Shown: positions 9,313 to 36,147 of the stretch, piece after piece | Layout: the number at the start of each line of letters is the position of its first letter | Position numbering within the stretch: the stretch's first letter is position 1 | Source: an uncultured delta proteobacterium | Lineage (GTDB): Bacteria > Myxococcota > Myxococcia > Myxococcales > Anaeromyxobacteraceae | Direction: 5' to 3' | Length of the DNA stretch: 64,000 bases | Assembly: GCA_963814585.1 (NCBI GenBank) | Contig: CAWFDF010000009.1 | Location: forward strand, 256,001-320,000 | Notes under the pieces: model-generated | What the model was told of the DNA's origin: nothing | Seen by the model: the letters and a program-made list of their open reading frames with translations, nothing else | Database searches by the model: none | Made by a program: the position numbers and the translations under genes

Positions 9313-12978
<3,666 letters not shown>

Positions 12979-12990
12979 TGGCGCCACCCA

Positions 12991-13109
12991 CTCGTGCCAC
13001 GCCCCAGGCAAGGTGACGTGACGAGAGAGCCGAGACCGAAGCGAGGCCGCCTGCCGCAGCGAGAGGATCGGCTCTCGCAGTGAGCATCTTGCCTGGGGCG
13101 TGGCACCAG
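12991..13109. mobile_element. Palindromic MITE-like element, copy 1 (119 bp, internally deleted)
   Basis: 19-bp inverted ends GTGCCACGCCCCAGGCAAG...CTTGCCTGGGGCGTGGCAC. Its reverse complement matches copy 2 apart from a 64-bp deletion between GCCTCG direct repeats and a few substitutions. Confidence 0.85.
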
Positions 13110-13358
13110 GCCCGATCCCCGCGGCGGCGCACGCTGCCTGGCGGCTCCCGGCTCGGGCCGGCCGAGGGCGCCGCGGGCCGGTTGCCGGGGCCTTCCGGCG
13201 GCGGGGCCCGGCGCGCTTGATCCAGCCGTCGTTCCGTGGTCTTTTCCGGCCCTCGATCCCGGTTGCGGGCGGTCCGTGTCGGGGAAGTGTCCCCCCGTCC
13301 CGCGCGTTGAATGCAGGCGGCCCCGTCCGCCGTCTCCACCTGAAGGAGCCTCGTCCCC

Positions 13359-14386
13359 ATGGTTCGTCGAATCGTGCTCGTCAGCGTCGCCGCGGCCCTC
13401 GCCGCCTGTGGCAACTCCGGCCCCAAGAAGAGCGGCACGGCCGTCGCCTCCGGCAAGGGCATCACCATCACCGCCGAGGAGTTCAAGGCCCGCCTGGATG
13501 AGCAGTCCCCCTTCATCCGCGCCCGCTACACGACGCTGGAGCGGAAGAAGGAGTTCCTCGACAACCTGATCCGCTTCGAGGTCCTCGCCAAGGAGGCGGA
13601 GCGGCAGGGGCTCGACAAGGACCCCGAGGTGCAGCTGACGCTGCGGAAGATCATGGTCCAGAAGCTGGTCCAGCGGTCCTTCCAGGACCCGGGCGCCGCC
13701 AAGGAGCTGCCCGACGCCGAGACCCAGAAGTACTACGACGAGCACAGGGACGAGTTCAACCGTCCCAAGAAGGCCCGGGTGGCCGCCATCGTCCTCAACG
13801 CGCCGGCCGGCTCGCCCGACCGGGCCAAGAAGGTCGCCACCGCCAGGAAGGCGCTCGCCAAGGTGAAGGCCGAGGAGAAGAAGAACCCCATGGCCTTCCA
13901 GCAGGCGGTCGCCGAGTTCACCGAGGACGCGGCCAGCAAGGGCGTGGCCGGCGACCTGGGCTTCAAGTCGGCCGAGGAGCTGGAGAAGAGCTTCGGCAAG
14001 GAGGTGGCGACGGCCGCCTTCGCGCTCAAGGCCGGCGAGGTCTCCGGCGTCATCGAGGGCGCCCAGGGTGTCTACGTGATCCGGCTGGCCGGCGTGCAGG
14101 AGGAGCTCTCCCGCTCCTTCGAGCAGGTGAAGGGGCAGATCAGCCAGAAGCTGACCCGGGAGCGGCGCACCAAGGAGTTCGACGAGCTGGTGAAGAAGCT
14201 CCGCGACGAGGCCCAGGTGGCCATCGACGACAAGGCGCTCGAGGCCGTCGTGGTGGCCGCCGCGCCGGCGCCCACGCCCGGCGCCCCTGGCGCCGGCGCC
14301 ACGGCATGCCCGGCGCGCCCGGCATGCCCATGTCCATGCCGGCACCGGCCCCGGCCGCTCCGCCCGCCGCGCCCAAGACCAGGTAG
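13359..14386 (+). CDS. PpiC-type peptidyl-prolyl isomerase lipoprotein (one base apparently missing near 14297)
   Basis: Lipobox LAAC; EDAASKGVAGDLG, AFALKAGEVSGVIE. The Pro/Met-rich tail continues in another frame to TAG 14384-14386. Confidence 0.85.
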
Positions 14387-15339
14387 TGCGCCGGACCGGC
14401 TCGCTCGGCCTGCTGGCCCTCGTCACCCTCGCGGCCGCCTGCAGCCGGAGCGGGGGTGGCGCGGCCTCCGGGGCCCCGGCGGGCACCCAGGCGGTGGCGG
14501 TGGTGAACGGCGAGCCCATCCCGGCGGCGGCGCTGGCCCGCGAGCTCCGCCAGATCCGCGCCGGCGGCGAGGGGGACGCGCCGGGCGAGCCGCTCCGCAA
14601 GCGGGTGCTGGACGATCTCATCGACCGGGCCCTGCTGCTCCAGCAGGCCCGGGCCCGCTCCATCGCCGTGGGGCAGGAGCAGGTGGAGCGCGCCTTCCTG
14701 CGGGTCCGGGGCGAGTACCCCGGCACCCACTTCGACGACCTGCTGGCGCGCGAGCGGCTCAGCCAGGCCGAGCTGAAGGCGCGCCTGAAAGACCAGCTCA
14801 CGGTGGAGCGGCTCTTCCACGACGAGGTCTTCCCCCGGGTGCAGGTCCAGCCCGCCGACGTGGAGCGGTGGTACGCCGACCACGCCGCCGAGTTCCAGGA
14901 GCCGGACCGGGTCCGCGTGCTGCAGGTGGTGGTGTCGAGCCGCGACGAGGCCGCCGCGCTGCGCGACAAGCTGCGGCGGGACCCGTCCAAGTTCGCCGAG
15001 GTGGCCCGGGCCAGCTCCATCGCCCCGGAGGGGAAGAACGGCGGCGAGCTGGGCTGGATCCGCCGCGGCGGCGGCTTCCCGGAGGTGTTCGACGTCTGCT
15101 TCTCCCTGCCGCTCCACTCCATCTCCGACGTGGTCCCGTCGCCCTACGGCTTCCACGTCTTCCGCGTGGTGGAGCGAAAGGGCGCCAGCCGGCGCACCCT
15201 CGACCAGGCCCGCGGCGAGATCGCCGAGCGCCTGCTCCGCGAGCGCCGGGCCCGCGCCCAGGAGGAGTACCTGGCCACGCTGCGCGGGCGCGCCACCATC
15301 CAGGTCGACCAGTCGGCCCTCTCCGCGGTGACTCCTTGA
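14386..15339 (+). CDS. PpiC/SurA-type peptidyl-prolyl isomerase lipoprotein
   Basis: Lipobox LAAAC; VAVVNGEPI, SIAPEGKNGGELGW, SPYGFHVF. Confidence 0.88.
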   Translation: MRRTGSLGLLALVTLAAACSRSGGGAASGAPAGTQAVAVVNGEPIPAAALARELRQIRAGGEGDAPGEPLRKRVLDDLIDRALLLQQARARSIAVGQEQVERAFLRVRGEYPGTHFDDLLARERLSQAELKARLKDQLTVERLFHDEVFPRVQVQPADVERWYADHAAEFQEPDRVRVLQVVVSSRDEAAALRDKLRRDPSKFAEVARASSIAPEGKNGGELGWIRRGGGFPEVFDVCFSLPLHSISDVVPSPYGFHVFRVVERKGASRRTLDQARGEIAERLLRERRARAQEEYLATLRGRATIQVDQSALSAVTP

Positions 15340-16434
15340 ACCCGATCTCGCTCTCGCTGCTCGCCCTCGCACTCGCCGCCGAACCGGCCCCGCCGGCCGC
15401 CACCGCCCAGGAGGCCCGTCCGGCTGCCGCTCCGGCCACTGACCCGGCTGCGGCCCCAGTCGCTGCTCCGCCTGGGGACCGCACCGGCGCCCGCGAGGGC
15501 TCCGGGGCCGGCCCACCGGGTCGTCGTCAACCGGGTGGCCGCCACCGTCAACAGCGAGGTGGTGACGCTGCAGGAGCTGGAGCAGCGCGGCGGCGACGAG
15601 TGGAAGCGGGCCAGCGCCCTGCCGCCCGGGCCGGAGCGCGACCGGGCCGTGGCGCTGGCGCTGCGCCGCGCCTTCGACGGGGTGCTGGCCGAGAAGGTCT
15701 TCCACGCCCAGGCCGTGGCGCTGCAGCTCGAGGTGACCGACGACCAGGTCACCGCCGCCATCGAGGACATCAAGAAGCGGAACCGCGCCGACGACAAGAT
15801 GCTCGACCAGATGCTGGCCGAGCAGGGGCTGACCCGGCCCGAGTTCCGCGAGCAGATCCGCGGCCAGCTCGAGAGCTACAACGTGCTCTCCGCCAAGGTG
15901 CGCGGCAAGGTGAGGCTCTCCGACGACGACGTGAAGAACTACTACCAGAAGCACCCGGGCGAGTTCCGGGGCGAGGAGGAGCTGCACGTCCGCCACATCC
16001 TCGTGCCGCTCCCCGAGGACGCCGACCGGTTCGAGGTCGGCCGGGCCACGCTGGCGGGGGAGAAGGCCCGGCAGCGCGTCACCGGCGGCGAGCCGTTCGG
16101 CGAGGTGGCCAAGGCGATCTCCAAGGGGCCCGGCGCCGCCGAGGGCGGCGATCTCGGCTGGCTGCGCCGCGGCACCATGCAGCGCTCGCTGGAGGAGGTG
16201 GTGTTCGCCCTGAAGGACGGCGAGGTCTCGCCGCTGGTCCGGGCCGGGCCGGGCCTCCACCTCTTCAAGGTGGAGGAGCGGCGGCAGGGCGGCGGGCGGA
16301 GCTTCGAGCAGGTCAAGGACGAGATCCGCGACCGGCTCAGCATGGAGCAGACCCAGGCCTACCGGGAGCAGTACCTGGGCGAGCTGAGGCGCGACGCCGT
16401 CATCGACATCCGCATCCCCGAGCTCAGGGACTGA
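15336..16434 (+). CDS. SurA-like chaperone/PPIase (extra G near 15475)
   Basis: Signal peptide from TTG 15336 (LNPISLSLLALALAA); after the shift VVNRVAATVNSEVVT, VRHILV, EGGDLGW. Immediately upstream of pdxA, as in surA-pdxA operons. Confidence 0.85.
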
Positions 16435-16448
16435 CGGGGCCCGGATCG

Positions 16449-17474
16449 ATGCGAGCTCCCCGCCTCGCCATCAGCCTGGGCGATCCCTCCGGCATCGGCG
16501 CCGAGGTGACGGCGGCGGCGCTGCTCGAGCTGCGCGGCGAGGTGGAGCCGCTCCTCTTCGGCGACCCGGGCCTGCTGGCGCGCGGCTTCGCCCCGCTGCG
16601 GCTCCCGGTGGTCGAGCTGGGCGCGCCGGTCCCGGCGGGGGGCGCGCTGGTGGCGGTCACCCGGCTGCCGGCCCCGGCGCTCCGGGCCGGCCGCCCCTCG
16701 GCGCGCGGCGCCGCCGCCCAGCTGGCCTTCCTCACCGCGGCCTTCGACTCGGTCCGGAACGGCCAGTCGGCCGCGCTCTGCACCGCGCCGGTCTCCAAGG
16801 CCCAGGTGGCGCGTGTCCTGCCCGGCTTCGTCGGCCACACCGAGTGGCTGGAGGCCCGCTGCGGGGTGCGCCGCACGGTGATGATGCTGGCGGGGCGGCG
16901 GCTCCGGGTGGCGCTGGTGACCAACCACGCGCCGCTGTCGCGGGTGCGGCGGGCGCTCACCGCGGCGCTCATCGCCGAGACCATCGCCGTCACCTTCCGG
17001 GCGCTGCGCCACGACCTCGGCGTGGCCCGGCCGCGGGTGGCGCTGGCGGCGTGGAACCCGCACGCCGGCGAGGGCGGCCTGGTGGGCGACGAGGAGGCGG
17101 CGCTGCTCGACCCCGCGCTCGGGCTGGCCCGGCGGGGCGGCACGCCGGCGCACGGCCCCTACCCCGCCGACTCGGTCTTCTTCCGCGCCGCGCTCGGCGA
17201 GTTCGACGCCGTGGTGGCGCTCTACCACGACCAGGGGCTGATCCCGGTGAAGCTGCTCGACGCGGTGGCGGGTGACGCCGCGGTCAACGTGACGCTGGGG
17301 CTGCCGCTGGTGCGGACCAGCCCGGATCACGGCGTGGCCTACTCGCTGGCCGGCACCGGCCGCGCCAACCCGGCCTCGATGGTGGCGGCGCTGCGGCTGG
17401 CGGCGAGGATCGCCAACGTGCGGGCGGTGGCGGCCCGCAGCGCCAGGGTGCGGGCGAAGGCGGCGCGACCGTAG
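16449..17474 (+). CDS. pdxA: 4-hydroxythreonine-4-phosphate dehydrogenase PdxA
   Basis: LGDPSGIGAE, TAPVSK, GHTE, NPHAGE, YHDQGLIP, RTSPDHG. Confidence 0.95.
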   Translation: MRAPRLAISLGDPSGIGAEVTAAALLELRGEVEPLLFGDPGLLARGFAPLRLPVVELGAPVPAGGALVAVTRLPAPALRAGRPSARGAAAQLAFLTAAFDSVRNGQSAALCTAPVSKAQVARVLPGFVGHTEWLEARCGVRRTVMMLAGRRLRVALVTNHAPLSRVRRALTAALIAETIAVTFRALRHDLGVARPRVALAAWNPHAGEGGLVGDEEAALLDPALGLARRGGTPAHGPYPADSVFFRAALGEFDAVVALYHDQGLIPVKLLDAVAGDAAVNVTLGLPLVRTSPDHGVAYSLAGTGRANPASMVAALRLAARIANVRAVAARSARVRAKAARP

Positions 17475-35480: not shown

Positions 35481-35663
35481 CTAGTGCCGCGCCCCAGGCA
35501 AGATGCCTACTGCGAGAGCCGATCCTCTCGCTGCGGCAGGCGGCCTCGTCGGTCCGCTGCTCAGCGTAGCGCTGCTACGCTTCTGCTGCTCCCTCCTCGG
35601 GCGCCAGCCTCGCTTCGGTCTCGGCTCTCTCGTCACGTCATCTTGCCTGGGGCGCGGCACTAG
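35481..35663. mobile_element. Palindromic MITE-like element, copy 2 (183 bp, full length)
   Basis: Perfect 25-bp inverted ends CTAGTGCCGCGCCCCAGGCAAGATG / CATCTTGCCTGGGGCGCGGCACTAG; central hairpin AGCGTAGC-GCT-GCTACGCT; no credible ORF. Confidence 0.9.
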
Positions 35664-35964: not shown

Positions 35965-36147
35965 TCAGGGTCCCGATCCAGGCAAGTTGCCGGCTGCGAG
36001 GGCCGATCGTCTCGCTGTAGCAGGTGGCCTCGTCGGGCCGCTGCTCAGCATCGCACGGCCACGCGTCCGCCACTCCATCCTCGGGCGCCAGCCTGGCCTC
36101 GGTCTCGGCGCGCTCGTCACGGCGTCTTGCCTGGCTCGGGGCCCCGG
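35965..36147. mobile_element. Palindromic MITE-like element, copy 3 (183 bp, diverged; overlaps the jag 3' end)
   Basis: Colinear with copy 2 (CCAGGCAAG, CTGCGAG.GCCGATC.TCTCGCTG, GGCCTCGTCGG.CCGCTGCTCAGC, TCCTCGGGCGCCAGCCT, CTCGTCACG, TCTTGCCTGG) and the same length. Confidence 0.8.

Follow-up and report, generated by a model that had tools for sequence, protein, structure and literature searches.

Nature of the element and its copies in the window

The 183-bp palindrome at positions 35,481 to 35,663 of the window, that is, of the whole 64-kb stretch of DNA that was analysed, raises the question of what kind of element it is, what moves it and what its interior contributes. In an earlier note it was read as an unannotated MITE or structured-RNA family. 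In this work, the element was found to be multicopy, intergenic, presence/absence polymorphic and furnished with ends that match an IS630-family element, in agreement with the MITE reading. Judged by its sequence, it is a MITE with ends of the IS630 type, RUP-like and thus of a known kind.

The copy at 35,481-35,663 (+ strand; copy 2) is a young full-length element including its CTAG flanks, in the order C-TA, 177-bp element, TA-G. Its left terminal inverted repeat with CTAG (35,481-35,505, + strand) is an IS630-type end and pairs perfectly over 25 bp with the right one (35,639-35,663, - strand), which, read inwards, gives TAG immediately and TGA in two frames deeper. The conserved core between them (35,506-35,638) has its purine-rich strand on the - strand, where an unbranched rod with GA-rich internal loops is predicted, and the apical hairpin (35,563-35,581, no strand assigned) has an 8-bp stem, AGCGTAGC-GCT-GCTACGCT. 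The length, the perfect CTAG-bounded ends and the central hairpin are thus as first described. The neighbours are the rsmG/gidB gene on one side and, on the other, a short gene, itself located downstream of an R3H (jag-like) gene.

Copy 3 (35,965-36,147, + strand) is an old full-length copy with decayed ends, TCAG...CCGG. It had been called equal in length and diverged, and it is indeed 183 bp long, 83% identical to copy 2 over 165 bp, with 22 differences from the majority core. Its right arm provides the R3H/jag-like gene with its final 9 codons and its TGA stop (36,117-36,119). The statement that the element has no ORF holds in substance, since Pfam gives no match for a 387-codon frame spanning copies 2 and 3, but it does not hold for these terminal codons and stop, which copy 3 supplies. 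Copy 1 (12,991-13,109, - strand) is inverted, as had been noted, but it is not the same element in full: it is a 119-bp derivative with ends CTCG...CCAG, from which the apical 64 bp are missing between two CGAGGC repeats, and the rod fold is still predicted for it. Hence the description of a family with CTAG ends applies to copy 2 but not to copies 1 and 3, only one of the three window copies having CTAG at both ends.

Copy 1 is nested inside a decayed older sister element of a TGA/TCA-flanked lineage (12,979-13,173, no strand assigned, limits approximate), which begins directly after the TGA stop (12,976-12,978) of an mfd-like gene and has flanks that are matched by several sister copies at other sites of the genome. 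At 13,359-17,474 (+ strand), the window also contains a 1371-codon open frame whose first part encodes SurA-like rotamase domains and whose last part encodes PdxA, either a true fusion or separate genes in one frame.

Copy number and placement in the genome

By BLAST, the assembly (4.34 Mb in 18 contigs, 91.7% complete) contains 68 loci, 30 of them full length, or about 65 places after two or three probable duplicated contig ends are discounted; many more copies genome-wide had been predicted from the three in the window. Near-identical flanks were seen on different contigs (C7:43932 and C9:6392; C1:21225-22116 and C16:33500-35676), which may reflect contig ends present twice in the assembly or variants from different strains. 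Among the full-length copies, 20 of 30 have at most four differences from the majority core and nine are identical to it. All but one of the loci (67/68) lie outside the genes predicted by our own simple gene caller. By gene context, these 67 loci comprise 20 convergent, 8 divergent and 37 co-oriented cases and 2 at a contig end, against 374 convergent and 534 divergent cases genome-wide.

The neighbouring gene's stop codon is formed by 20 of 87 element ends, and by 20 of 38 if only TAG-intact ends are counted. The CTAG tetranucleotide is five-fold depleted in this genome (1758 observed vs 8626 expected), and about half of the genomic CTAG sites (414/879) are stops. Because 20/38 is close to 414/879, there is no enrichment of stop codons beyond availability, and targeting of this kind was rejected. 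A fixed orientation to transcription was likewise rejected: the orientation relative to flanking genes is 19 vs 11 in this genome and 15 vs 28 elsewhere, the latter count representing 43 co-oriented cases out of 169 loci in other genomes.

At seven sites (C10:75944, C14:116123, C14:368925, C12:124550, C12:116723, C3:333194, C13:85654), predicted neighbour genes run 19-29 bases into the arm and stop at an internal TGA, which gives them short C-terminal tails. At C8:138460 and C8:546670, collapsed remnants of about 24 bases from the outer parts of both arms were found, a form that a deletion across the hairpin, between short repeats, would leave.

Mobility and target site

The sites of copies 2 and 3 near rsmG are empty in all five congeners examined, one of which keeps a 24-base collapsed remnant at the upstream gene's stop codon (L012 in G007, upstream of rsmG). 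In metagenome contigs, from which 15 runs with word shares below 0.2 were left out, except X20, two of four runs, belonging to two studies, contained a joint at copy 2 that leaves out exactly 179 bp. The comparison of empty with filled orthologous sites, which the earlier note had proposed, speaks for mobility. The depth at the empty-allele joint was 10.1 in run X1 and 5.2 in run X5; the short side of the joint has only 24-25 bases and the likeness floor was 90%. In run X1 the contig extends 190 bp past the joint with 4 differences and a neighbour contig ends exactly at the branch, and in run X3 a contig enters the element at the copy 2 site. The 179-bp joint could be a hairpin-skipping artefact. 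The RNA run X20 yielded low-depth short element pieces and was set aside, as contigs of a repeat indicate neither expression nor origin.

The insertion of copy 2 adds 179 bp to a single CTAG. A duplication of TA and a blunt AG...CT insertion at CTAG yield identical sequence, and a TA duplication is presumed here by analogy with the IS630 precedent in the accessible part of PMC2170065. The outer flank base among 20 young copies is C in 15 and T in 5, and this variability suits duplication of TA better than duplication of CTAG. A 4-bp CTAG duplication was rejected, given that TTAG/CTAG pairs occur and the outer base varies.

Of 20 young, otherwise near-identical copies, 9 have lost the outer T at position 182 (the 5' end on the purine strand), mostly in favour of C on that strand, vs a change of 0.7% per core base; one end of the IS630 element L048 is changed likewise. 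A similar lean of the outer base was observed in other genomes (34/83 vs 19/83 at the opposite end). Plain cut-and-paste does not explain this asymmetry. At C8:326507, which has a CCAG end, the outer-base change likely came after insertion, because 4/4 aligned orthologues stop with TAG there; the idea that CCAG ends prove a non-TA target was rejected on the same grounds.

A strand-specific predicted fold

On the purine-rich strand, the 30 aligned elements are predicted to form one rod of 56 pairs, 46 of which have changes on both sides. When the core alone is considered (30 sequences), both sides have changed in 25 of 34 pairs, and 94.9% of cells are paired vs 26-53% in slid controls, a comparison that flatters the fold because the structure was derived from the same alignment and the sequences are related. 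The unpaired columns of the core are more conserved than the paired ones (0.90 vs 0.80), and G and A make up most of the well-conserved unpaired bases. The internal loops CGAG/CGCAG and tandem GA/GA are near-invariant and, as motifs of this kind do, may form sheared G-A pairs. Copy 2 has a folding z of -9.5 (+ strand) and -12.6 (- strand), with 0/200 shuffles folding as well; for the core, z is -4.49 on the purine-rich (-) strand vs -1.91 on the + strand. When standard DNA parameters were used, the predicted minimum was a structure other than this rod. Mismatches between the arms, read on the purine strand in a register fixed by the element ends and among related elements that are not independent, are G-T in 71 cases vs A-C in 16, or 37 vs 13 as distinct events; within this genome (18 copies) the count is 9 vs 6, which is not significant.

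A search of the window against Rfam returned only 2 tRNAs at the gathering score, and 3 chance matches (E 3.6-10) in E-value mode. Of the structured-RNA alternative, the conserved core fold stands, but neither an Rfam family nor a consistent orientation to transcription accompanies it. The element is unannotated as far as Rfam families are concerned, but its apical hairpin was already listed in Geobacter metallireducens in 2009, according to the accessible part of PMC2700814.

One core under the ends of several transposase families

The core of about 130 bp is found across Myxococcota and in three other lineages, within elements of 174-188 bp. Core matches occur in 56 of 401 genomes of the phylum, in 6 families, with two candidates scored per genome. 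A search with a core pattern returned at least 114 stretches, including Anaeromyxobacter oryzisoli SG63, A. terrae SG22 and A. sp. PSR-1 and, among the matches listed, Ca. Eisenbacteria, Ca. Binatia and Vulcanimicrobiota, and a covariance model matched all five genomes taken from these pattern matches. From such matches, the window's DNA probably belongs to the family Anaeromyxobacteraceae. Two element queries gave no match among PLSDB plasmids, and one core pattern gave 0 matches in viral contigs.

The 83 distinct full elements fall into 16 end clusters, and the length range of 174-188 bp is kept in all 16. The ends of five insertion sequences have 0, 1, 2, 2 and 3 differences of 18 bases from element ends, with 0/2000 shuffles as good in each case; these five were chosen after inspection, and most other IS ends differed at 5-7 of 18. 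They belong to the IS630 element L031, the IS5 element L229, the element L223 (IS1182-like by its best model, which is below cut-off), the ISAzo13 element L279 and the short DUF4096 element L269; L223 and its matching elements reside in one genome (G183). An IS630 or IS5 transposase had been suggested as the mover. IS630 fits the present family, and ends of IS5, IS1182-like and ISAzo13 type bear the same core in other genomes. The core profile was found in 0 of 87 transposase loci, which implies that the elements are not deletion products of the partner IS.

Several relatives depart from this plan. Shorter ones with the inner core only (L107, L110, L137, L189, L192, L204; Binatia and other Deltaproteobacteria) are closer in form to the Geobacter repeats, and L107 has a partial tandem duplication. 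The sister lineage, with a related core, other arms and TGA/TCA on both sides, is represented at C3:363809, C14:186226, C4:248638 and C14:381321 and at 12,979-13,173 of the window; from these sequences it apparently lands on TGA stop codons. A. oryzisoli SG63 has dozens of core matches, and the copies examined there have arms related to this sister lineage. Among the DUF4096 and ISAzo13 loci, no partner was found for the TGA/TCA-flanked lineage.

The candidate IS630 partner

The search for a transposase with matching ends led to relatives of this genome, where one of 22 DDE_3 loci, L031 (G013), is a CTAG-flanked IS630 element of 1213 bp with two reading frames, classed by NCBIfam as IS630 with 123 bits vs a cut-off of 100. 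Its left end has 2/22 differences from one of the two end subtypes of our genome and 4/22 from the left end of copy 2, while among the genome's other 22-mers that start with TAG (about 23,660), 0 come within 2 differences of it. Both arms of the element resemble one end of an L031-type IS, and L031 and its kin have CTAG flanks and land on TAG stop codons, as the element does. The two IS630 frames overlap at a run of seven A (L031:1400-1410), likely a -1 frameshift site.

Kin of L031 are present in 6 of 92 family genomes, and among 11 congeners only in G011, in which no element match was found. Such kin and full-length copies occur in one genome only in other genera (G023, G060). In the assembly itself (91.7% complete), no cognate transposase was detected, either with the DDE_3, DDE_Tnp_1, DUF4096 and ISAzo13 profiles or by tblastn with five transposases, even though young copies are present. 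Close copy pairs were considered as the ends of an autonomous unit and rejected, as the genes they enclose are of the housekeeping type (aldolase, CAAX protease, methyltransferase, histidine kinase, TPR protein).

Proposed mechanism and alternative explanations

We consider it probable that the element is an IS630-type mobile element with ends that are moved in trans, and that its core is likely selected as a portable helper module. In the accessible part of PMC2170065, transposases of the IS630/Tc1-mariner type attach to the terminal repeats, cut the element out and give rise to a TA duplication. We hypothesize that an IS630 transposase supplied in trans would act on the arms, cut out the element and paste it into the TA of (C/T)TAG. 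Because about half of the CTAG sites are TAG stops, many insertions would land on and rebuild a TAG stop and do little harm. The purine-rich strand would fold when single-stranded, most likely as DNA in replication or transposition and possibly as RNA, and the rod would pair the arms. A new IS end may be gained on one side by insertion at CTAG and then copied to the other arm by template switching, by which the core would be re-fitted to an active transposase. Through the GA loops, stability of the rod would be confined to one strand, and these loops may also serve as a protein-binding surface. For the role of the core, a DNA-level helper is a serious though still tentative candidate, to which the inconsistent orientation to flanking genes leans; an RNA-level effect is possible but rather doubtful, and a core without any selected role seems slightly less probable again.

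The element may instead be an ordinary MITE whose core is unselected: an old hairpin kept by descent, with compensatory changes from hairpin-templated repair and ends gained by chance. Template switching in quasi-palindromes produces concerted changes without selection, and could account for those seen here; internally deleted copies without the apical hairpin, such as copy 1, are moreover present in the genome. However, template switching should erase mismatches, whereas the unpaired GA positions are the best conserved, and the length of 174-188 bp is held under all the end clusters; the deleted copies, for their part, may be dead ends. We regard this explanation as unlikely. That the element is a host-domesticated structured RNA or a regulatory element of 3' ends, the role suggested for the Geobacter repeats, is less likely still. 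The covarying fold and the G-U-friendly strand bias would suit it, as would the excess of convergent over divergent loci (20 vs 8, against 374 and 534 genome-wide) and the designation of the related Geobacter repeats as predicted short RNAs in the accessible part of PMC2700814. But insertion sites are not conserved between species or strains, the orientation to genes is inconsistent (19 vs 11; 15 vs 28), Rfam gives no match, and the convergent bias follows equally from stop-codon targeting.

The folded single strand could also be the real substrate, handled by an HUH (Y1/RAYT-like) or other single-strand mechanism, with the IS-like arms as a mere closing stem. The strand-specific fold extends into the arms, the DDE partner was not found in this assembly, the outer flank base changes asymmetrically, and the genome gives four weak Y1_Tnp matches, all of which speak for such a mechanism. 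Yet four or five DDE families have IS ends that the arms match far better than shuffled sequences do, and the REP-type unit of tag plus hairpin is absent from the element ends. With E values of 2e-5 to 6e-4, the Y1_Tnp matches are weak; three have no Pfam family at 1e-5 as genes, and none of the four loci has a core nearby. We hold this to be the least probable of the explanations considered. The four frames that contain these matches (C8:453811, C14:375628, C10:67364, C9:151583) measure about 310-340 codons, two of them agreeing in score and length, and are possibly genes of the REP-associated type, unrelated to the core as far as tested.

Comparison with known systems

Our preferred reading, a trans-moved IS630-type element with a selected core, has its nearest parallel in RUP of Streptococcus pneumoniae, described in the accessible part of PMC2229807 as a 107-bp, non-coding, intergenic element with a TA target, IS630-Spn1-like ends and a long stem-loop. 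All these traits except the length recur in our element, whose ends resemble another IS630 element and whose TA target is a presumed one. In contrast to RUP as described there, it is longer (177 bp plus the TA flanks), GC-rich and bounded by perfect 25-bp arms, and its interior shows no relationship to the partner IS and is common to elements with IS5, IS1182-like and ISAzo13 ends. Among insertion sequences themselves, ISY100 belongs to the IS630/Tc1-mariner group (PMC2170065, accessible part). The end sequence, the CTAG flanks and the landing on TAG stops are common to the L031 kin and the element; unlike these insertion sequences, the element has no transposase gene, both its arms resemble one IS end, and its core occurs in no IS examined. 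IS630 reportedly prefers TA within CTAG.

The 24 repeats Gmet_R1001-R1024 of Geobacter metallireducens were listed in 2009 as predicted short RNA elements (PMC2700814, accessible part). Their central palindrome equals the inner 16 bases of the apical hairpin, they are likewise multicopy and intergenic, and a comparison by eye suggests similar flanking motifs. The inner 16 bases were found at 16 places in our genome and the full 19-base Gmet motif at none, while the full motif is present in 27 of about 300 loci compared, two of them duplicates. In the part of that source available, the Gmet repeats differ in being about 111-116 bp long, without CTAG-bounded IS-like arms as listed, and were not read as mobile; by eye, the outer parts of the core look different as well.

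Chunjie, a MITE from Geobacter uraniireducens (PMC3184786, PMC10969869, accessible parts), has 178-235 bp, 21-bp arms, a strong fold, 9-bp direct repeats and an A+T-rich composition. It resembles our element in size, inverted arms, strong fold and provenance from a related phylum, but our element is GC rich and its flanks share only TA/CTAG, a distinction that rests on Chunjie's description in those parts.

The REP/REPIN sequences with RAYT are intergenic and multicopy, with a long hairpin and strand asymmetry. The element likewise has these features, but it has neither an end-tagged REP unit nor a flanked RAYT gene, and its arms match DDE insertion sequences. The accessible part of PMC3733652, on REP/REPIN and RAYT, contains no mention of Anaeromyxobacter or CTAG. 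A literature search, with ISfinder and most subscription papers outside its coverage, returned no account of the element family or of one core under the ends of several IS families.

Significance

As a MITE, the element is ordinary. What is unusual is that the interior, commonly regarded as filler, is conserved while the ends come from unrelated transposase families, and what is new is a portable, strand-specific core in a real, recently mobile IS630-type MITE, the role of the core being a proposed one. The element shapes this genome: stop codons are rebuilt or replaced, and nine residues have been added to the jag-like protein. A testable question follows, namely what selects stable strand-specific MITE folds and how a MITE changes its transposase. 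Direct assays are now possible with the partner transposase, the invariant GA loops and the cultured core hosts A. oryzisoli SG63, A. terrae SG22 and A. sp. PSR-1. As a speculative extension, which we hold to be possible but not likely, the rod with its GA loops may be a transposase-independent cis module that raises mobility or survival and so permits end swaps over IS630, IS5, IS1182-like and ISAzo13 elements in several phyla. If this were true, selection would act on the core as its unit and not on the ends, which inverts the common picture of a MITE as a deletion product of one IS.
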